Position numbers and translations under genes: made by a program. From positions 870,001-902,000 of the forward strand of contig NC_000964.3 of the NCBI RefSeq assembly GCF_000009045.1: a stretch of DNA of 32,000 nt. Direction: 5' to 3'. The notes beneath the pieces were generated by a model, which was given only the letters and a program-made list of their open reading frames with translations, did not search any database and was not told where the DNA came from. The DNA is from Bacillus subtilis subsp. subtilis str. 168 (GTDB taxonomy: Bacteria > Bacillota > Bacilli > Bacillales > Bacillaceae). Of the stretch, positions 3,402 to 21,371 are shown piece by piece. Position 1 is the first letter of the stretch. Each line of letters begins with the position of its first letter.

Positions 3402-4802
3402 GTGAACCAACAAAAGAAACAGGCGCCCGTCGAACTGAAGGTCGGACAAACTTTTCCGCTGACGATTAAGCGTCTCGGCATTAACGGAGAAGGTGTTGGC
3501 TATTTTAAGAAAAAAGTCGTCTTCGTGCCCGGCGCGCTTCCTGGCGAAGAAGTTGTTGTGCAGGCCACAAAGGTCCAGCCGAAGTTTTCGGAGGGCCGCA
3601 TTAAGAAAATCCGCAAGGCATCTGAGCACCGGGTGGCACCGCCTTGCCCTGTTTATGAACAATGCGGCGGCTGTCAGCTTCAGCACCTTGCATACAGCCA
3701 GCAGCTTCGGGAAAAACGTGATATCGTCATTCAGTCTCTTGAACGCCATACGAAGTTTAAAGTTGAAAACATGGAAATCAAAGAAACGATTGGCATGGAC
3801 AACCCGTGGAATTACCGCAATAAAAGCCAATTCCAGATCGGGCGCTCGCAAAGCGGCAGCATCATCGCCGGCTTATACGGCCTTGATTCTCATGATATCG
3901 TGCCGATTAAAGACTGTATCGTTCAGCATCCGGCAACGAACAAAACAACAGGCATCGTCCGCCGCATTTTAGAGGACTTCAATGTGTCTGTTTATAATGA
4001 AAGAAAACGAAAAGGCGACGTTCGCACGATCGTGACGAGAGTCGGCTTTGAAACAGGCGAAGTGCAGGTCGTGCTTGTAACCGCAAAAGAAACGCTTCCG
4101 CACAAGGAAGAAATCGTCAAAGCGATTCAAAAGCGATTGCCAGAGGTCAAATCCATTATTCAGAATGTAAACGGGGCGAAAACCTCAGTGATTTTTGGTG
4201 AGAAAACAAAACAGCTCGCCGGAAAAACAGTGATTCAAGAAGTGCTCGGCGACGTATCTTTTGAATTGAGCGCCCGCGCTTTCTTCCAGCTCAATCCGGA
4301 ACAGACCGTCAAGCTGTATGATGAAGTGAAAAAAGCGGCGCAGCTGACCGGAAAAGAAAAAGTCGTTGATGCGTATTGCGGCGTCGGCACTATCGGCATG
4401 TGGGTTGCGGACGGAGCGAAGGAAGTCCGCGGCATGGACGTCATCAAGGAATCAATTGACGATGCTAAGAAAAACGCCAAAAAACACGGCATGGCAAATG
4501 CCACATACGTAACAGGAACAGCCGAGCACTGGCTCCCGAAATGGACGAAAGAAGGCTTCCGCCCGGACGTCGTCATTGTAGACCCGCCAAGAACGGGCTG
4601 TGACAGCACGTTCTTGGACACGATCAAAAAAGTCAAACCGAAACGCTTTGTCTACGTTTCCTGCAATCCATCCACGCTTGCGAAAGATTTGCAGACGCTG
4701 TCGAAGGACTATCGCGTGGACTATATTCAGCCTGTCGATATGTTTCCGCAGACGGCGCATGTTGAAGCAGTGGCGAGGCTTGTATTAAAATCGTCTAACT
4801 AA
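3402..4802 (+). CDS. rlmCD: 23S rRNA (uracil-C5)-methyltransferase, RumA/RlmCD type (TRAM domain, 4Fe-4S cluster, SAM methyltransferase)
   Basis: N-terminal TRAM-like domain and Cys cluster [17 protein letters not shown] motifs [10 protein letters not shown] and DPPRTG, and the nucleophile motif [15 protein letters not shown] start 6 nt after the SD GGAGAG. Older name yfjO. Confidence 0.85.
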
Positions 4803-4841
4803 AAAGAACATTTCCCAGTCATAAAATAGTTTTCCTAATAA

Positions 4842-4889
4842 GACCTGGATTTCGGTAAAATAAACAATTCCGATTTCCGGGTCTTTTTC
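4842..4889 (+). terminator. Rho-independent terminator after rlmCD
   Basis: Arms gacctggatttcgg / ccgatttccgggtc (with an internal TT mismatch and one G-U pair), followed by ttttt. Confidence 0.65.
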
Positions 4890-4930
4890 GTGCGCAGCTC
4901 TTGTCCTAACGGTCTGTTCTCAATTTTATC
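4843..4930 (+). repeat. Left copy of an imperfect direct repeat (terminator module plus about 40 nt downstream)
   Basis: acctggatttcggtaaa ... tccgggtctttttcgtgcgcagctcttgtcctaacggtctgttctcaattttatc aligns with 7471-7545. My by-eye estimate is about 75 percent identity over the 3' 55 nt, plus the 5' arm. Confidence 0.7.
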
Positions 4931-5109
4931 TTCCTTCTTTTCGCGGAGATCTTTATTTTAACTGGCGAAAAGAATTGAAAAAACGTGTTGAAAAGCAGGT
5001 GAAAAAAAGCGTTATTTAACCGGAAAAATATCCTCCCAGTATGTTTAAAATACATGAGTAGAATGATGTAAAATCATAGATGTATTTTCATAATTTGTAA
5101 AATTATATA

Positions 5110-5139
5110 TTGACTTGCAGTTATTACGTGTGAAATATT
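5110..5139 (+). promoter_or_regulatory. Candidate sigma-A promoter inside the AT-rich segment
   Basis: TTGACT (5110-5115), 18-nt spacer, TG-n-AATATT (5131-5139). Confidence 0.3.
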
Positions 5140-5233
5140 GATGATAGGAATATAAGGAAAGTATGGCGTATATCATTTCAAGAGTCATTCGATGTAAAAA
5201 GTTGAAACATTGTAATAAATGAAAGAGGTGAAA

Positions 5234-5287
5234 ATGATGGCCAACCCCATTTTAAAATGCATAACGTATGAGCACTACAACAATTAA
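5234..5287 (+). CDS. Candidate 17-aa small ORF (MMANPILKCITYEHYNN)
   Basis: A strong SD AAGAGGTG (5223-5230) lies 3-6 nt upstream of the tandem ATG ATG, and a candidate promoter lies about 100 nt upstream. There is no homology evidence. Confidence 0.25.
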   Translation: MMANPILKCITYEHYNN

Positions 5288-5427
5288 ATAATAGTGCCGA
5301 GACGATAACAACTATTACAGTAATACCTACAATGGTTATATCCTTGCGACAATCATGCTTCATAATATAATGATTTTAGATTGACACTTGGCTAAAAAGT
5401 ATTGCAGAGAAGGAAATGGATAATTAA

Positions 5428-5694
5428 ATGGATAAAGTATATAAAAGAAGTTGGTTTCAAACATTTTTGGCATTTTTAGTATCTCAGCTTTATTTTAATT
5501 TTGTAGAATTAACGGGATGGGGTCCTAAGTATAGAGAAATGAATGGATTCCCAGCAAACATAGTTGAACTAGATTTCTTTCAAACATATCTTTCATTCTA
5601 TGATAATCCATGGTTTAATATTATTACTGTTTTCTTGGGAGTTTTCACTATTATACAAATAATTACAGGGATAACAAAGGATATTCGAAATTAA
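5428..5694 (+). CDS. Small hypothetical membrane protein (88 aa, two hydrophobic segments)
   Basis: An intact ORF in an AT-rich context, with hydrophobic segments FQTFLAFLVSQLYFNF and FNIITVFLGVFTIIQIITGI. The SD-like GAAGGAAA is about 12 nt upstream, and a hairpin lies downstream at 5765-5790. Confidence 0.45.
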   Translation: MDKVYKRSWFQTFLAFLVSQLYFNFVELTGWGPKYREMNGFPANIVELDFFQTYLSFYDNPWFNIITVFLGVFTIIQIITGITKDIRN

Positions 5695-5764
5695 AGCAAT
5701 AACTTCTGATGCCTTATTTAATGATGAAAGAAAATGTACACTTTCTTAATTATCTTATGAGTGA

Positions 5765-5796
5765 AGACTGCGACACTTAGTCAGCAGTCTATTTTA
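5765..5796 (+). terminator. Possible terminator after the 88-aa ORF
   Basis: Stem agactgc (5765-5771) / gcagtct (5784-5790), followed by atttta. Confidence 0.4.
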
Positions 5797-6425
5797 TGGT
5801 TCTGGATCAGGATTACCGAATTATAACCCTATACAAATATATAGTAGGTTGCCACTTGCTGCGTTGGTTATTTTCTAAATCATGAGCAAATCCCAAATGA
5901 TTCAGATTGAAGTTCTTGAATTCTTTTAAATAAGGGTTTATTTTCTCTTCTCATCCTCTTTACTCCATGTGATTCACAAGTGGTAGCAGCTTAAGTAGGT
6001 TTTTTCATTCTCTTGAGTACTCAGTTATACCACCCCCAACTCAATTTGCTTTATCTCTATTAGTTTTTCCGCAAATATGATATAGAGATACGGATATGGT
6101 GTAGTGTTAAATATCTTATCTTCAATAACAGGGCAATTATTTTGCGTTGGTAATATGGAGAACTCATATGATATTCTATTTAGGTTGGAATCCTTTTTAT
6201 CCAAAAAGTTCAAAAGCAAGGCCACTAAGAAAGACGAAGGTCAGCGCCAGTTAACCAGAATATAAAAAATAGGGTAGATAATCATCCCACGTGAAATCTT
6301 CAAAATTTACTATAGATTGATAAGAAATGCTTTCGCATGCGATAAGTGTAAAAGAAGCATGGTCAGTTTTTAATTTGGGATAAAGGTTCAGCCGTATCCC
6401 ATAATGAAAGGATTTGATTTTTGTT

Positions 6426-13719: not shown

Positions 13720-13757
13720 AGATGAAAACGGCGTGTAAGGGAGGAGCGATCAAGGAA

Positions 13758-15575
13758 ATGAATTCGGTCCCAAACGATTTGCAAACCTGGAAACGTTTTG
13801 TGAAAGACGGTGTGCTTGACGAAGCCCGATTAAGAAAACGGATTGCAGAGTCATGGCATCGCTGCAAAAAAGCTGAGGTCAATCCTTATTTAGAAAAAGG
13901 CCCGAAGGTTTTACAGCAAACGGAGCTGGATCAGCAGTCAAAAAAACATTCATTCTTCTTGACGACCGCAAAGCCTTACCTCGAAAAACTGCTGCCTGCC
14001 ATAAAAGAAATGGAAATGATGGCGCTGTTAATTGATTCAGACGGTGTTGTTCTGGCATTGGACGGCCATCCGCGCGCGCTCTATGAAGCCAAACGCATCA
14101 ATTTCGTCGAAGGGGCATGCTGGACAGAAACGGCTGTCGGAACAAATGCGATTGGCACGGCGCTCCACATCAGCGAGCCGGTTGCAATACAAGGATCAGA
14201 GCATTACTCTATCGCTTCCCATCTTTGGAACTGTTCAGCTGCTCCGATTCACCATGAGGATGGCAGCCTTGCGGGTGTAATTGACATATCATGCCCGGCG
14301 GCAGGCGCGCATCCTCATATGCTTGGTATTGCCACGGCGATTGCCTATGCCGCTGAACGGGAACTCGCAGCTAAAAGCCGTGAGAAAGAGCTGGAGCTGA
14401 TCAGCCGTTTTGGGGAGAGAGCTGCATCCAGTGTGCCGATGGTGCTCTGTAATACCAAGCAGCACATCATCAGTGCGAGCATGCCGATTCGAACCTCAAT
14501 GCCGGATTGGCAGGGCCGGCACCTGTACGAGTTGAAGGAACGGGGCTATTCAATCGAAAATGCTGTCACCATAGGAGATGGCGGCACTTGTTTTTATCTT
14601 TCGGAACAAAAGAAAAAGAAGGCGTTTCGATTCAATGGAGTGATCGGGCAAAGCGGCCGATCGCAAGCGATGCTGATGCACCTTGAACGAGCAGCTGCGA
14701 CGGATGCATCGGTCTGTTTGTCGGGTGAAACGGGTACGGGGAAGGAGGTCGCGGCTCGCGCGCTTCATGAGAACAGTGAGAGACGGCACGGTCCGTTTGT
14801 TGCTGTCAATTGCGGAGCGATTCCGTCTGATTTGATTGAAAGCGAACTGTTCGGATATGCAGAGGGCGCTTTTACGGGAGCGAAACGAAATGGCTATAAA
14901 GGCGCCTTTCAAAAAGCGAATCAAGGCACATTATTTTTAGATGAAATCGGAGAAATTTCCCACTCGATGCAGGTTGCACTTTTACGGGTGCTTCAGGAAC
15001 GCAAGATAACGCCAATCGGCGGGACGAAAGAAATTCCGGTTGATATCAGAGTTATTGCCGCCACACATTGTGATTTACGCGAGCTTGCCGAAAACGGAAA
15101 AATCAGAGAGGACTTGTTTTACCGTCTTCATGTCTATCCAATTGAACTCCCTCCATTACGCGATCGCACCGAGGATATCCCGGATCTCTTTGAGTACTAC
15201 AAACAGAAGAATCATTGGCCAGGCGATCTTCCTTCTGATTTTTGTAATGTGCTGAAGCAATGGAAGTGGCCGGGGAATATCCGCGAGCTGTTTAATGTGT
15301 TTGAACGTCTTTCTATCAGATTTCCGGACGGCCGGCTGAGAGATGAATCGCTTCCCGCTTTACTGGAAGCCGCTGGATTGCCGGCCAGCTCTGCAGAAAA
15401 AAAGCCGGCTGCTGCCGGCGTGCTTACTTTTCGTGAGCAAATCCAAAAGGATATGATGATCAAAGCGCTTGAATCTGCAAAAGGAAACGTCTCTCAAGCC
15501 GCAAAAATCAGCGGGATCCCCCGAAGCACTTTCTACAAACGCCTGAAAAAATTCAACTTGTCCGCTGAATCATAA
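13758..15575 (+). CDS. acoR: Sigma-54-dependent transcriptional activator of the aco operon (bEBP)
   Basis: N-terminal sensory (GAF-like) region. AAA+ sigma-54 interaction domain with Walker A GETGTGKE and the GAFTGA loop (EGAFTGA). C-terminal Fis-type HTH ([19 protein letters not shown]). The ORF-track ATG at 13722 lies only 2 nt after the predicted -10 hexamer (13714-13719), upstream of the expected TSS, so ATG 13758 is preferred. Confidence 0.88.
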
Positions 15576-15811: not shown

Positions 15812-15843
15812 AAAATGGCCCGCTTCATAAGCAGGCCATTTTG
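15812..15843. terminator. Bidirectional terminator between convergent sspH and yfjF
   Basis: Arms aaaatggcccgc / gcaggccatttt (one mismatch). A-run on the left and T-run on the right. Confidence 0.7.
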
Positions 15844-16173
15844 TTATCCGCGCGGCGCAAATAAAATAACACAGACACCGATGAGACAAATGAATGCGCC
15901 GATCCAGTCATACAGATCAGGTGTTTTCCGGTCAACAAGCCATCCCCACAGGACCGCAAGCACGATGAATACTCCGCCATAAGCGGCGTATACACGGCCG
16001 AAAGATGGGAAGGACTGAAACGTCGGAAGAATGCCGTATACAATGAGGATCAGCGCCCCGGCGATTCCGTAGCCAGCTGGCTTTGCCTCTCTCAGCCATA
16101 GCCAAACCAGATATCCGCCGCCAATTTCAGCAAGCCCTGCCGCGAGAAATAAAAGAATGGTAATCAGCATCAT
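15844..16173 (-). CDS. yfjF: Small 4-TM membrane protein, UPF0060 (YnfA-like, SMR/DMT-related) family
   Basis: 109 aa and almost entirely hydrophobic, with the conserved [10 protein letters not shown] motif. SD GAGGAG, with ATG at 16173; the ORF-track GTG at 16179 abuts the SD. It is the last gene of the minus-strand yfj operon. Confidence 0.8.
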
Positions 16174-16222
16174 GAGCACTCCTCAATTTGCATTTATCTT
16201 TCATTATAGAGGAGGAGAGCTT

Positions 16223-16765
16223 TTAAAGCTTCGGATGATTCTCAAATTCCTTCAAATACGCTTTTCGCTGAACCTCTGTAAATTGGCTGATCCAATTGTT
16301 TTGAGCCTCTTCATTCAAATGGGGAAGGATATAGCGTTCAACCGCTTCGAAAAACAGCGGATTCGTGATGATGTTCCAGGTCGGGATTCGAACGATTTTG
16401 CCGTCTGTTTTCTCGATGATAATATCCTCAAAAAAGATCCCTTTCAAACTGTATTGATGGCGTCCCATATAAAGCCGCTTCACCTCGGAAAACAGCACGC
16501 TGCGCTTTCTCAAGAAGATTTCGCCACTAGGTCCGGTCTTTATGGTGAAAATGACATTTCCACGGCTTGTGAACGCAGGAAAAGCCATAAAGAATGTGAT
16601 CAATCCATAAATCATCGCCAGTAATCCGCCGCCCAAATAAAGCAGGGCATATTTAGATTCAAACGTGAGGGCTTCAGACACCAGCCAGACTCCCACAATA
16701 AAGGCGCCCCCTGTAGCGAGGAACAGCCAAGCCCTTAGAAACATCATGCTTTTTACTTCAATCAT
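16223..16765 (-). CDS. yfjE: 2-TM membrane protein, paralogue of YfjD; candidate immunity protein
   Basis: Two N-terminal TM helices (FLRAWLFLATGGAFIVGVWLV; ALLYLGGGLLAMIYGLITFFMAF) followed by a soluble ~110-aa domain. The C-terminal 56 aa are nearly identical to YfjD. Confidence 0.8.
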   Translation of the reverse strand: MIEVKSMMFLRAWLFLATGGAFIVGVWLVSEALTFESKYALLYLGGGLLAMIYGLITFFMAFPAFTSRGNVIFTIKTGPSGEIFLRKRSVLFSEVKRLYMGRHQYSLKGIFFEDIIIEKTDGKIVRIPTWNIITNPLFFEAVERYILPHLNEEAQNNWISQFTEVQRKAYLKEFENHPKL

Positions 16766-16774
16766 GTGCTGCCC

Positions 16775-17332
16775 CTAAAGCTTCGGATGATTCTCAAATT
16801 CCTTCAAATACGCACTGCGTTGGATGTCTGTAAACTGTCCGATCCAATTGCTTTTCGCCTCTTCATTCAGATGTGGAAGGATATAGCGTTCAACCGCTTC
16901 GAAAAACAACGGATTCGGAATGATGTTCCAAGTGGGAATGCGAATGGTCTTCTGATCCACGGTTTGGATCAATATATCTTCTTGGAAGATTCCTTTTAGA
17001 CTAAATTTATGGCGGCTCATCTCAATTTTCTTGATATCAGTAAACGTAACAGACACTTTGTCAGTGAACACTTCTCCATTTTTTCCTGTCTTGATGCGGA
17101 AAATGGTATTTCCCCGCGGGGTGAAAGCCGGAAAGAAGATGATAAATAAATATAAACAAAACAAGGTGAACAGAAAGCCAGCAGGAATGGCTAATAGGTA
17201 ATATTTCGTTTGAAACGTAATACCCATATAAAAGAGCCACAAACATGCTAATCCCATACCGGCAGATCCGACAAAAGCCCATATTCTCAGGAACATTTTG
17301 CTTTTGACTTCAATGATTTCTTGGTTTTTCAA
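16775..17332 (-). CDS. yfjD: 2-TM membrane protein, paralogue of YfjE; candidate immunity protein
   Basis: TTG start 7 nt after the SD AAAGGAG. Same architecture as YfjE. The stop is 9 nt upstream of the yfjE start. Confidence 0.8.
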   Translation of the reverse strand: MKNQEIIEVKSKMFLRIWAFVGSAGMGLACLWLFYMGITFQTKYYLLAIPAGFLFTLFCLYLFIIFFPAFTPRGNTIFRIKTGKNGEVFTDKVSVTFTDIKKIEMSRHKFSLKGIFQEDILIQTVDQKTIRIPTWNIIPNPLFFEAVERYILPHLNEEAKSNWIGQFTDIQRSAYLKEFENHPKL

Positions 17333-17363
17333 TGCTTTTCTCCTTTTGTTAATTCAATTCTTA

Positions 17364-18131
17364 TCATTTTGAAATGATTTGATTTACAACATCCTTATGA
17401 GCAGGGAGGATAGAAAATTCATTCTGGGTGATGCCTGTGACAAGCCAAGTATGGTGGGCCCCCGGCAGGACGAATGCCATGTCAGCCACTTCAGGAGTGT
17501 TATCTTTTCCATATGCCAGACGCATAAGTGTATCCATTTTCCCTTTCCGCAAAGCCAGATCATTTGCAAATCGGGTAACGTCCTCTTGGTGGTCATGTTT
17601 TTCAAGGAACTCTTTTAGATATGAAGGGTTGTCTGAAGCGCCCTCCAAGAGTTTTTCAAATTCATTTGATGTCAATGTTACAATCGATTCTCTTTTATCC
17701 TCTGTATCTATTATATGTAAAAACTCATCTGTCTTAGCAAGTAACCCTTCACTTGATTCCATTTTTGTAATGCGATGGACTTGTTCATCAAAAAGGAGTT
17801 CGTGAGAGTAGGTGCCGAATTTTGATACATGGCATGACACATTCTGTTCGGCACCTTGCCCGTTAAATTTAGAAAGCTTCACTGTATAGTCAGCGTCGTT
17901 TAATACATGGATAAACGGACAGTACTCGTCCTTTAACCGATATTGATGGTTCCGATATTCCGCTGCATCCTTGGCTAAGAGTGAGCGGCACGCGGCTTCA
18001 AATAAGGCGCCGAGCTGTTCATCTTCTATTTCCGGAAAATAGGCCTGCTTCAAGGCCATTCCCTGTTCAAAAAACCCTTCGCTGTAAAAGCAAAACAAGA
18101 GTTCTTCTATGCTAATTGTAAACTGCTTCAT
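17364..18131 (-). CDS. yfjC: Cytosolic acidic protein of unknown function (255 aa); candidate chaperone/adaptor or immunity factor for YfjB
   Basis: No TM segment or signal peptide, and rich in Glu and Asp. The SD AGGAGA overlaps the yfjB stop, with an 11-nt intergenic gap. Confidence 0.75.
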   Translation of the reverse strand: MKQFTISIEELLFCFYSEGFFEQGMALKQAYFPEIEDEQLGALFEAACRSLLAKDAAEYRNHQYRLKDEYCPFIHVLNDADYTVKLSKFNGQGAEQNVSCHVSKFGTYSHELLFDEQVHRITKMESSEGLLAKTDEFLHIIDTEDKRESIVTLTSNEFEKLLEGASDNPSYLKEFLEKHDHQEDVTRFANDLALRKGKMDTLMRLAYGKDNTPEVADMAFVLPGAHHTWLVTGITQNEFSILPAHKDVVNQIISK

Positions 18132-18142
18132 TGTTTATTCTC

Positions 18143-19366
18143 CTATCCAAATGAAAATTTCCCTTTAAGGAAATGGGTTGCGCCGTGTATAAGCGAATCC
18201 GCTGTTTTCTTTGCTTTTTCCATTCCTTTTTTCGCGCTGTCTATCCCTTTATGTATCGATTTATTCGCCGCATCTATGCCGTCATTCACTGATTTGACGA
18301 CTTTGCCGGCTGATTCCAGCCCTTTTTTGGCTGTATCAACAACAGCATGGATCGGTTCTTTCAGCTTTAAGGCTGCTTTTTCAGCAAAACCGGCTGTATA
18401 TTTGGCGATTTGTTCTCCGACGACTCCGCCAATGTATGAACCTGCTGCCCCAAGAAGGACAGTACCCACAGGTCCTGCAAAGCTTCCGATTGCACCGCCG
18501 ATGACAGCACCAGCTGTGGCACCGCCGGCAACAAAAATCGTATTATTCACAGCATTCCCGACGGCCTTGGCGTTTTCACGCTTGAGAACTTCCGGTTTAT
18601 CCTGGTATTTTGCATAATTTTCAGCAATTTTCACGCCTGCTCCGAATGTTTCGGTCGCTCCGGTAATCAGTGTGGCGGTAATGGCATTTCCTTTCGCGAA
18701 TCTCAAGCCCGTTTTTCCCACATCCTTCAAAGTGGAGCGTACGCCGGCTTCATTAAGAAATCCTTTTGTGTAGCTTCTGACGCTGTTTGAAAAATCCACC
18801 GTGTCCTGAGGAAAGTATTTTGTAAACTTTTTATGTACCAAATCTGAAAATGGACGGTTTGTCTTTTTCAACAAATATTTAGGATTCAAAAGCACTCTTG
18901 CCGCTTTTTGATAACGTGAGCTGTCAACGGCCCTGGAAATATCCAAGAGCAGTTTTGAGTGCTGGGCTGTATGCAAGCCGCTTGGTTGTTTCACAAATTT
19001 CGTAAGCCCTAATCCGTAATATTTTCCCTGCGTCAGCATAAGAGCGGTTAAGCTTGTCATCGTACCGTATTTGTCGTAGGCATTGTAGAGCTTTCGCAAA
19101 ATATCATCTTGTTCCACAAATTTATCGCCTGTTTTTCTGATGAAAATCTCATTGTCACTCAGCTTAGTGACGAGCGCCTTTCCTGAGCTCCACGCATCGC
19201 CCACTCCAGAAAAACAGCTGCTGTAGCGGGGATCGCATTGCAAAATCATCTGCCCCAGCTCCACATGCAGGTCCTTATATTTGTTTTCCATATCAGTTAA
19301 TTCAGTGACTACATCATTTGCAAGCTGTTCGAGCTTATCCGGATCAACTGCAATGTTTCCTGACAC
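18143..19366 (-). CDS. yfjB: Putative T7SS-secreted toxin: WXG/LXG-like helical N-terminus, glycine-zipper and Lys-rich repeat C-terminus
   Basis: The N-terminal ~100 aa are helical with the turn motif VGDAWSSG. Residues ~271-320 form a glycine zipper (GAVIGGAIGSFAGPVG...GAAGSYIGGVVG). The C-terminal 80 aa are amphipathic and Lys-rich with a repeated (V/I)DxA(K/N)K motif. The start is ambiguous: the ORF-track GTG at 19375 overlaps the SD GGGAGG, while GTG at 19366 has 8-nt spacing and is preferred. Confidence 0.8.
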   Translation of the reverse strand: MSGNIAVDPDKLEQLANDVVTELTDMENKYKDLHVELGQMILQCDPRYSSCFSGVGDAWSSGKALVTKLSDNEIFIRKTGDKFVEQDDILRKLYNAYDKYGTMTSLTALMLTQGKYYGLGLTKFVKQPSGLHTAQHSKLLLDISRAVDSSRYQKAARVLLNPKYLLKKTNRPFSDLVHKKFTKYFPQDTVDFSNSVRSYTKGFLNEAGVRSTLKDVGKTGLRFAKGNAITATLITGATETFGAGVKIAENYAKYQDKPEVLKRENAKAVGNAVNNTIFVAGGATAGAVIGGAIGSFAGPVGTVLLGAAGSYIGGVVGEQIAKYTAGFAEKAALKLKEPIHAVVDTAKKGLESAGKVVKSVNDGIDAANKSIHKGIDSAKKGMEKAKKTADSLIHGATHFLKGKFSFG

Positions 19367-19371
19367 ACCGT

Positions 19372-19686
19372 TCACCTCCCGAGTTTATGTCTTTCCTCTC
19401 TTGCTTTACGCTCCAGTTCTTCCATTCTGGCAATTTCAGCTTTTCGTTCTTCTATTTTGACAGCGGCAGCCTTCAGCTCTTGGCTTGTTTCAAGCAGCTC
19501 CTGTTCGAATTGATCGTAGGCGGCTTTCGTTTCCTCGAAATCCTGGTCAAACGAATCTCTTGCTTTGCCCTGCCAAGCATCTCCCAATGCAGATAACCGG
19601 GATTCAAGCAGCATTTTGGAGCTTCTGACCTCTTCTGCGGCCGCACTATACTTGTTTGCCAGCTCAATGACTTTATATGAGTCCAA
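19372..19686 (-). CDS. yfjA: WXG100-family (ESAT-6-like) small helical protein, 104 aa
   Basis: W-x-G motif (DAWQG) at residues 38-40 of a ~100-aa all-helical protein with a coiled-coil charged C-terminus. TTG start at 19686 lies 6 nt after the SD AGGGGA. The ORF-track extension to 19791 encodes an implausible leader and overlaps the promoter region. Confidence 0.8.
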   Translation of the reverse strand: MDSYKVIELANKYSAAAEEVRSSKMLLESRLSALGDAWQGKARDSFDQDFEETKAAYDQFEQELLETSQELKAAAVKIEERKAEIARMEELERKAREERHKLGR

Positions 19687-19741
19687 CTTTTGTCCCCTGC
19701 CTTTTCTAAATTCACGCACAATTGGATGTTTTATATAAATG

Positions 19742-19770
19742 ATTATAAATAATTCGGCATGTATCCGAAT
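19742..19770 (-). promoter_or_regulatory. Candidate yfj operon promoter -10 (TATAAT) with an adjacent perfect inverted repeat
   Basis: Minus-strand TATAAT (plus strand 19742-19747). The inverted repeat ATTCGG-N7-CCGAAT (19752-19770) occupies the -35 region, where no good TTGACA is present. Confidence 0.4.
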
Positions 19771-19940
19771 CGTACAAAAGAACCTTTTCATAAGAATTGG
19801 AAGGGCGTATATTCACTTAAAATTCACAGTTGGTGAGACTTTAAGATTACAAAAAAGGTAAAAAAACCAAATCTCTCAGACATAAGGCAAATGAGAAATT
19901 TCCCGCTCTATGGGAAAAAACACTAAAGTTGATCAAATGA

Positions 19941-21371
<1,431 letters not shown>

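Follow-up and report, generated by a model that had tools for sequence, protein, structure and literature searches.

A window of 32,000 nucleotides from the chromosome of Bacillus subtilis subsp. subtilis str. 168 (NC_000964.3, positions 870,001 to 902,000; its own numbering is used throughout) contains six co-directional genes on the minus strand that form the yfjABCDEF operon, very probably an effector module of a type VIIb secretion system (T7SSb) located far from its own secretion machine (yukE-yueC). The YFJ system is already known and the identity of the operon adds nothing new for the field. What comparison of the locus across genomes adds is a set of orthologues linked to type VII secretion system (T7SS) genes, the exclusion of yfjF from the system, toxin cassettes borne on LXG proteins, and two allele-matched toxin/chaperone/immunity haplotypes. 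A far-reaching reading, to which we give an even chance, is that YFJ is a kin-discrimination weapon with two alleles, and more widely with multiple alleles, whose specificity would lie in ~15 residues of the zipper hairpin of the toxin YfjB and would be read by the transmembrane (TM) hairpin of the DUF5381 immunity proteins. Strains 168 and 3610 would make the D-type toxin and keep yfjE as an orphan immunity gene directed at the E-type toxin that B. spizizenii, B. inaquosorum, B. stercoris and others make, and YfjC would not be a general targeting factor but a holdase of EspG fold that is specific to the toxin domain and matched to its allele. The genes, and the parts of yfjB on which this reading bears, are as follows.

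18356-18529, minus strand: block of yfjB that sets the allele (codons 280-337), here with the D-type zipper.
18347-18724, minus strand: toxin module of YfjB (residues ~215-340), with a pre-zipper helix, the invariant LKRENAKAVG (261-270) and the glycine-zipper hairpin (281-325).
19372-19686, minus strand: yfjA, 104 amino acids; TTG start at 19686 with GGCAGGGGA (Shine-Dalgarno) ahead.
18143-19366, minus strand: yfjB, 407 amino acids; GTG start at 19366 behind GGGAGG, 5 nt past the yfjA stop. Domains of the protein: residues 1-100, WXG100-like helical hairpin; 100-215, middle helices; 215-340, toxin module; then a helical tail.
17364-18131, minus strand: yfjC, 255 amino acids; ATG start at 18131, after a gap of 11 nt.
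16775-17332, minus strand: yfjD, 185 amino acids; TTG start at 17332 behind AAAGGAG, after a gap of 31 nt.
16223-16765, minus strand: yfjE, 180 amino acids; ATG start at 16765, after a gap of 9 nt.
15844-16173, minus strand: yfjF, 109 amino acids; ATG start at 16173 behind GAGGAG, after a gap of 49 nt.

Two alleles of the YfjB zipper were found. The D-type zipper reads SFAGPVGTVLLGAAGSYIGGVVGEQIAKYTAG and the E-type zipper SVLGPVGTV[VI]GGTIGSAVGGFVGEKIAKFTSG. Comparison of the window with YfjE-only genomes of the B. subtilis group yields DNA identities of 0.92-0.99 over the flanks and most of yfjB, ~0.70 in 18351-18500 and 0.66-0.83 in the 3' two-thirds of yfjC. At the protein level, YfjB of B. 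stercoris differs from that of the window at 21 positions, 17 of which fall in residues 280-337 (binomial p 1.4e-11), and the positions that completely separate the allele groups, with no residue in common, number nine and are all located at 293-325. In this same comparison with B. stercoris, synonymous and non-synonymous changes are both concentrated in codons 280-337, while 2 of the next 70 codons differ. The concentration of changes of both kinds in the zipper block points to old alleles that have been reshuffled by recombination.

Each zipper allele appears to be matched to its own DUF5381 type and to its own type of YfjC C terminus. All ten D-zipper loci carry yfjD, whether yfjE is present or not, and none of the nine E-zipper loci does; in the nine E-zipper genomes, DUF5381 is represented by the E-type gene alone. 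A split of this kind (10/0 versus 0/9) has an exact probability of ~1e-5, ignoring relatedness. The C-terminal two-thirds of YfjC co-segregate with the zipper allele too (98% versus ~80% identity). The pattern is also visible between close relatives: two B. inaquosorum-like genomes are 0.98-1.00 identical over glvA, yfjA, the 5' part of yfjB, yfjE, yfjF and acoR, but identity falls to 0.74 over the zipper block and to 0.75-0.84 over the 3' part of yfjC, with yfjD in one of them only. A spacer of 0.95-0.96 identity separates the divergent blocks of this pair, and in these blocks the yfjD-carrying genome is 0.95-0.98 identical to the window. A B. spizizenii-like pair shows the same pattern. The split of the alleles within both pairs shows that it is not a species effect.

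We infer from these associations that yfjE serves in this genome as immunity against the E-type toxin of other lineages. An immunity gene aimed at a foreign E-type toxin would explain why no phenotype is seen in self-competition assays: in the 2023 preprint by Kobayashi, yfjE and yfjF mutants equal the wild type in competition (10.1101/2023.08.02.551746). The pattern could be explained differently if it were the result of hitch-hiking, with zipper differences that are neutral and linked to the yfjD insertion or deletion, and with yfjE as a redundant or decaying duplicate, an explanation that we find rather unlikely. It is helped by the fact that the zipper block, the 3' part of yfjC and yfjD all lie within 1.8 kb, that the D-type cassette seems to move between species as a unit, that some B. 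subtilis strains have truncated YfjE variants of 152 amino acids, and by the silent yfjE mutant itself (10.1101/2023.08.02.551746). Co-segregation of the yfjC 3' part with the immunity gene could indeed be plain physical linkage, and the compared loci are phylogenetically non-independent. On the other hand, the association remains perfect (10/0 versus 0/9) across 400-600 bp of spacer that is 0.95-0.99 identical between the divergent blocks, and such a near-identical spacer indicates that recombination has occurred between them. Furthermore, amino acids change only within the membrane hairpin on the toxin side (p 1e-11) and within the TM hairpin on the side of the immunity paralogues, and the nine genomes in which the E-type gene stands alone have an otherwise intact operon.

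YfjD and YfjE are the tandem paralogous proteins with two TM segments that had been described in an earlier note on this DNA, made from the letters alone. Both match DUF5381 (PF17353, 1e-75 and 2e-61), have two hydrophobic segments each and are 61% identical to each other, with 38% identity in the TM hairpin and 87% in the C-terminal third. By its antitoxin genetics (10.1101/2023.08.02.551746) and by the distribution of the genes, YfjD is the immunity protein for the D-type toxin. Divergence of the TM hairpin among tandem DUF5381 copies holds in the window, in B. halotolerans and in B. swezeyi; in the tandem genes of Cytobacillus the TM hairpin is instead the most conserved part, and we rejected hairpin divergence as a general DUF5381 rule since it fails in these loci. 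As for the annotation of YfjD as a lipoprotein, a search by regular expression did not find a canonical lipobox in the protein (positions 27-30 read GLAC), so that the annotation is unsupported by this search.

The toxin module of YfjB has GxxxG motifs at 282, 286, 290, 294, 309 and 313, and a weakly hydrophobic stretch spans 275-321. In the set of 26 YfjB family members that was used for all domain and motif counts, Gly-zipper_Omp is matched by all 26 (best E 5e-7) and DUF6861 by 19. An exhaustive search with residues 215-407 as query recovered, beyond proteins of the same architecture, two true LXG proteins, P0167 and P0178 (Pontibacillus halophilus), so that LXG relatives of the YfjB toxin domain exist in other Bacillaceae. 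The C terminus of P0167 aligns to YfjB 223-365 with 39% identity (pairwise E 1e-19). In one of the two loci (L068), the LXG toxin gene is followed by two small open reading frames (ORFs), a YfjC-family protein (hhalign probability 96%, E 3e-9) and a DUF5381 protein whose match is borderline (24.9 bits for a cut-off of 26). In the Pontibacillus locus (L069), Lap-type helpers, one YwqH-like and one DUF5344, precede the LXG toxin, and the protein encoded after it shares the precomputed Pfam labels of YfjC, with a weak profile comparison (probability 18%). Pairwise BLAST between YfjC and the proteins beside the LXG relatives was not significant. By sequence comparison, the toxin domain is a portable module common to YfjB-type and LXG toxins, and DUF5381 would follow it in one LXG locus, given the borderline match. 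The presence of YfjC-family genes beside the LXG-borne toxin domain indicates that YfjC tracks the toxin domain and not the N-terminal carrier, which argues that YfjC serves the zipper domain and not the secretion signal.

Among PDB sequences, the one match to YfjB was to the glycine-rich stretch of a phage tape-measure protein. The segment concerned, YfjB 280-335 (window 18362-18529), resembles phage tape-measure and minor-tail segments (PDB 9ki1_g, E 4e-8 with the family profile), and zipper-like segments also occur in P0181 and P0199, together with PhageMin_Tail or TMP_3 domains. This likeness is probably compositional or convergent, between segments that insert into membranes.

The second protein tied to the zipper allele, YfjC, is as acidic as the earlier note had it (43 D+E versus 26 K+R in 255 amino acids), and the structure search that the note had called for gave a clear answer for this product. 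Its AlphaFold2 model, built from 18 homologues, is of high quality, with a predicted local distance difference test score (pLDDT) of 90.4 and a predicted template-modelling score (pTM) of 0.84. EspG1, EspG3 and EspG5 of mycobacteria account for all 18 best PDB matches of the model (E 3e-8 to 1e-4, template-modelling scores 0.51-0.68), and the next one (E 0.035) is noise. YfjC thus has an EspG fold, but no similarity to EspG in sequence (11-14% identity in the structural alignments); the EspG-like AlphaFold model had already been remarked upon by the author of the preprint (10.1101/2023.08.02.551746). By sequence, YfjC had no match in our local Pfam or NCBIfam copies and none among PDB sequences, and its precomputed Pfam labels are PF27282 and PF27351. 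YfjC, a cytosolic protein, is presumed to be a chaperone of the YfjB toxin domain.

Some yfjC genes depart from the usual form. In B. halotolerans ATCC 25096 (L005 11215-11999), yfjC is split into overlapping ORFs of 137 and 138 amino acids, as a frameshift would produce; in other strains of B. halotolerans YfjC is intact, with 261 amino acids (P0067). At L040 13667-15746, the main module is followed downstream by a second yfjC-like gene and then two DUF5381 genes, whereas yfjB is not duplicated. These extra genes may form an orphan cassette for chaperone and immunity, or may be what is left of a toxin locus that was displaced.

At the other end of the toxin, YfjB resembles its presumed partner. 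YfjA (104 amino acids, motif DAWQG) is a WXG100 protein, as the earlier note had said, with scores above the cut-offs for PF06013 (47.5 bits for a cut-off of 27.3, 2e-12) and TIGR03930 (52.2 for 44.85, 5e-14), and is presumed to be the secretion partner of the YfjB N terminus. The latter is a helical hairpin with a WxxG turn (W-S-S-G) and a Y94xxxD98 motif right after the second helix. Twelve of the 26 family members match PF06013, all below threshold (best E 3e-4), and the family profile aligns to B. anthracis EsxB over residues 3-88 (E 0.02). The turn, as GD[AP]W..G, is present in 21/26 members and Y94xxx[DE]98 in ~21/26, and AlphaFold2 places helices at 9-43 and 58-99 with low confidence. 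The description of YfjB as a ~407-residue protein with a WXG-like N terminus and a glycine-zipper C terminus therefore holds in that both ends resemble these elements, and has to be amended in that the turn is WxxG and not WXG. The helical tail of the protein terminates in a conserved KLSFG. We also considered YfjB as an LXG toxin. The LXG domain (PF04740) was matched by none of the 26 family members at E <= 0.1, while P0167 and P0178, which served as positive controls, match it at 1e-51 and 2e-54. YfjB is hence not to be classed among the LXG toxins, even if its mode of action is like theirs.

Homologues of YfjB form 59 clusters at 90% identity and are present in 60 species-representative genomes. 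Carriers belong to the B. subtilis, B. pumilus and B. swezeyi groups and to Metabacillus, Cytobacillus, Peribacillus and Neobacillus, and further include Sporosarcina globispora, Fictibacillus and Aneurinibacillus. With 60 carrier species genomes, the module is not rare outside B. subtilis. The conserved unit consists of a WXG100 gene (upstream of yfjB in nearly all 60 loci), yfjB, yfjC (58/60 loci) and 1 to ~6 tandem DUF5381 genes (60/60). Two loci show a different arrangement: at L039 10001-12838 a DUF5381 gene stands between yfjB and yfjC, and at L053 10001-13033 yfjC is missing, and three DUF5381 genes come after a yfjB whose match extends no further than residue 382.

In eight of the 60 loci, the module lies directly downstream of YukC/EssB-EssC-EsaA(YueB-like)-EssA, and the ess genes of one of them (L043) were verified by Pfam (YukC 1e-121, FtsK_SpoIIIE 1e-57, EssA 5e-28). 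In two further loci, from Fictibacillus and Aneurinibacillus, the module comes after a different EssC-containing cluster. The module is thus associated in genomes with T7SS core genes, and these ess-linked orthologues support the T7SS link independently of genetics; they also suggest that the B. subtilis operon is a detached copy. The different, T7SS-like cluster was seen at L060 505-9688 and L057 52-9610. It comprises EssC with three FtsK domains, a 90-amino-acid WXG100 protein, a ~890-amino-acid protein with a weak kinase-like N terminus and tetratricopeptide (TPR) repeats, and a protein of 667-882 amino acids without Pfam match.

The gene neighbourhoods bear on the possibility that YfjA and YfjB are not T7SS substrates at all, and that the yukE operon plays its part on the target side, for example by serving as a receptor or by helping the toxin into the membrane, or acts indirectly. 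In a quantitative secretome, YfjA was found in equal amounts in supernatants of the wild type and of a yukBA mutant, in liquid culture and not in biofilm (PMC4010439), and in the literature searched we found no direct secretion assay for YfjB, nor any direct proof of T7SS secretion for either protein. It has also been reported that deletion of the yukE operon, or a transposon in yukB, suppresses the death of a yfjD mutant, and Yuk proteins were noted as possible receptors (10.1101/2023.08.02.551746). We nonetheless regard this possibility as improbable: the module lies directly after essB-essC-esaA-essA in eight species and beside essC in two more, it includes a WXG100 partner and a protein of EspG fold, the YfjB N terminus is WXG100-like with YxxxD, and the same toxin domain is found on LXG proteins accompanied by Lap-type helpers (YwqH-like and DUF5344). 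Export of YfjB by the T7SS remains our preferred reading.

The last gene of the operon does not appear to belong to the system. YfjF is the UPF0060 protein with four TM segments that the earlier note had listed (PF02694, 1e-50, 170.8 bits and above threshold; NF002586, 4e-43, 145.9 bits; four hydrophobic segments), a member of the UPF0060/YnfA family. Linkage of yfjF to yfjB was observed in 11/60 loci, which are exactly those B. subtilis-group loci that keep sspH, acoR and glvA. A linkage restricted to loci with this housekeeping synteny makes yfjF an adjacent, possibly co-transcribed neighbour and not a component of the system. It is highly improbable that YfjF is a functional member, for instance a second immunity factor or an exporter. 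Its gene does lie 49 nt past yfjE with no terminator between them, the strong terminator coming only after yfjF, and the six genes were treated as one operon in the preprint (10.1101/2023.08.02.551746). Yet yfjF is absent from the other 49/60 loci, the family is the widespread YnfA/UPF0060 with similarity to small multidrug resistance (SMR) proteins, and the yfjF mutant competes like the wild type (10.1101/2023.08.02.551746).

The gap between yfjE and yfjF (16174-16222) has features of its own. A CUCCUC in it can pair with the GAGGAG of yfjF (-16.8 kcal/mol, z -1.9, with 8/200 shuffles as good), and it contains a perfect TATAAT with no good -35 box. These features could provide for separate or damped expression of yfjF.

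Read directly from the sequence of the window, the six ORFs span 15844-19686 with gaps of 5, 11, 31, 9 and 49 nt, which reproduces the sizes and the spacing of the tight minus-strand cluster first reported in the earlier note. Its upper end needs correction: position 19791, given there, is the first ATG of the longest possible ORF, and yfjA starts with the TTG at 19686. The YfjB sequence of the window is an exact match to YfjB of B. subtilis subsp. subtilis. Two features border the operon.

19687-20021, minus strand: intergenic region between the divergent glvA and yfjA, with the putative yfjA promoter and 5' untranslated region.
15812-15842, minus strand: intrinsic terminator common to yfjF and the convergent sspH, with a 14-bp stem followed by a T-run.

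The terminator folds with -25.7 kcal/mol (z -6.1; 0/200 shuffles fold as well). A consensus scan found no convincing sigma-A promoter upstream of yfjA, which fits an activator-dependent promoter. One flank of the operon holds genes for aco-type E1alpha, E1beta, E2 and E3, a sigma-54 activator and sspH, and the other a family-4 glycosidase, an RpiR regulator and an alpha-glucoside phosphotransferase system. The gene content of the window thus agrees with the aco and glv catabolic surroundings noted before, and with the statements that T7SS core genes and mobility genes are missing from it: the window has no ORF of EssC size and no mobility gene. An Rfam search found no RNA family anywhere in the window. 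Elsewhere in the window, the longest acoR ORF (13722-15575) has 617 amino acids, for 605 given by gene callers on related contigs, and the true start is probably 12 codons downstream of the longest-ORF start. A stretch of ~1.6 kb (4802-6414), between genes for 466 and 329 amino acids, is AT-rich (GC content 0.30-0.37 versus ~0.47 around it) and contains only small ORFs, among them a hydrophobic one of 88 amino acids at 5428-5694.

The genetics of the operon come from the Kobayashi preprint (10.1101/2023.08.02.551746), whose findings are repeated in a T7SSb review (PMC10765036). Expression from PyfjA-gfp depends on DegSU, which induces the operon. Toxicity requires yfjB and yfjC jointly and is seen as cells positive for propidium iodide (PI), with inhibition of DegSU. 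YfjD is the antitoxin; yfjA and yfjC are required to outcompete a strain deleted for the operon, and competition requires the yukE T7SS operon and the biofilm matrix of exopolysaccharide (EPS) and TasA (all 10.1101/2023.08.02.551746). This is the link to T7SS-dependent competition in biofilms that the earlier note had mentioned, and the need for the yukE operon agrees with the dependence on a distant apparatus that it had deduced. Its view of the locus as an orphan T7SSb effector module, already described in 2023, is supported by the protein families, the EspG fold and the ess-linked orthologues. The toxin and immunity roles that it had distributed over the genes stand for YfjD, a demonstrated antitoxin, and less so for the last two genes, given that yfjE and yfjF mutants have no phenotype and that yfjF lies outside the conserved module.

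These data can be assembled into a mechanism. DegSU induces the operon in biofilms, as shown in the literature (10.1101/2023.08.02.551746). YfjA would pair with the WXG100-like hairpin of YfjB, which carries the WxxG turn and YxxxD, to form a helical-bundle export signal, while YfjC would keep the glycine-zipper domain soluble and export-competent, in a manner comparable to EspG on the tip of PPE proteins or ExiAB on the zipper of EsxX. On the genetic evidence, the Yuk/Yue T7SS would then export YfjB to closely apposed neighbours. There, the zipper hairpin would enter the target membrane from the outside, oligomerise and cause leakage, as its motif, the PI staining and the examples of TelE, EsxX and TspA suggest. 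YfjD, with its two TM segments, would neutralise the toxin in the membrane; its antitoxin role is genetic, and the mechanism proposed here is deduced. The genome would thus carry a D-type toxin, its cognate YfjD and a spare YfjE against the E-type toxin of sister lineages, with YfjF as a neighbouring membrane protein of the YnfA family that would have no role in the system.

The closest match to this mechanism is EsxX with ExiAB and ExiCD in Staphylococcus aureus ST398 (PMC12744356). As we propose for YfjB, EsxX is exported by a T7SSb and has its membrane toxin, a glycine zipper, at the C terminus; before export the zipper is sequestered by a soluble partner in the cytoplasm, as we propose for YfjC, and membrane proteins that also exist as orphan immunity genes protect against the secreted toxin (PMC12744356). 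However, EsxX has a true LXG N terminus and Lap partners, where YfjB has a WXG100-like hairpin and a WXG100 partner. ExiAB are DUF5085 proteins of GyrI-like fold, unlike the EspG-fold YfjC, and ExiCD are unrelated to DUF5381. Moreover, the effect of ExiAB is to neutralise the toxin, while genetic assays show that toxicity depends on YfjC. TelE/TipE of Streptococcus gallolyticus (PMC10434224, 10.64898/2026.03.12.711312) and TspA/TsaI of S. aureus are likewise T7SSb toxins that need a C-terminal glycine zipper, with immunity proteins that are located in the membrane or bind the zipper. The tspA locus of S. aureus, as the yfj locus, is found at a distance from the T7SS cluster and contains several immunity paralogues in tandem, but TelE and TspA are LXG proteins and we detected no similarity in sequence to YfjB, YfjC or YfjD. 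EsaD/EsaE/EsxBCD of S. aureus and PE/PPE/EspG of mycobacteria share with yfj a non-LXG helical substrate, small WXG100-type partners and a globular chaperone of EspG fold (in yfj, the presumed chaperone YfjC), and the likeness of EsaE to YfjC has also been drawn in the T7SSb review (PMC10765036). They differ in the nuclease activity of EsaD and in that PE/PPE do not act as toxins against bacteria; the site bound by EspG is the helical tip of PPE, whereas for YfjC the comparative evidence points to the toxin domain. Finally, B. subtilis has six LXG toxin-antitoxin systems that rely on the same secretion machine as yfj, share the dependence on DegSU, biofilm and EPS/TasA, and serve intraspecies competition (PMC8321402). 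They differ from YfjB, which lacks an LXG domain, and the preprint describes both classes as separable in function (10.1101/2023.08.02.551746).

Some observations weigh against a membrane-active weapon of this kind, besides the secretion data, the possible linkage, the relatedness of the loci and the Cytobacillus hairpins mentioned above. Toxicity is weak, with ~10% PI-positive cells and colonies that still form, and the toxicity of overexpressed yfjBC does not need YfjA (10.1101/2023.08.02.551746). The AlphaFold2 model of YfjB, from an alignment of 26 sequences, is poor (pLDDT 55.8), and its fold matched nothing in the PDB below E 0.24, so that it places YfjB in no structural family, toxin or non-toxin. 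YfjB of the window itself scores below the Pfam glycine-zipper threshold (18.7 versus 25 bits), and pore formation is deduced from the motif and from analogy.

Weak toxicity is also one of the grounds for the view of the preprint author, who takes the system to be mainly a signal: exported YfjBC would dampen DegSU in siblings and delay sporulation, and toxicity would be incidental. Deletion of the operon raises DegSU-regulated expression and brings sporulation forward, overexpression of yfjBC blocks bslA expression even in immune cells, and the operon seemed invariant, with little sequence variation, in 13 B. subtilis strains and "rarely found in other species" (10.1101/2023.08.02.551746). We see a primarily signalling role as possible, though on the unlikely side, as the species complex is polymorphic, with two zipper alleles and matched immunity genes within and between species, and as DUF5381 genes form tandem arrays of up to 5-6. 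Two alleles and tandem immunity arrays are hallmarks of antagonistic toxin-immunity evolution. The roles of signal and weapon are not mutually exclusive.

Our comparative results challenge the argument that the operon is non-polymorphic and hence a signal, an argument that would be overturned if kin discrimination by allele proves true. They offer too a testable explanation for the lack of phenotype of yfjE and for the puzzling requirement for YfjC. If immunity is indeed allele-specific, YFJ would provide a compact system for the recognition between toxin and immunity protein through transmembrane helices, and the balance in the weapon-versus-signal debate on YFJ would shift.

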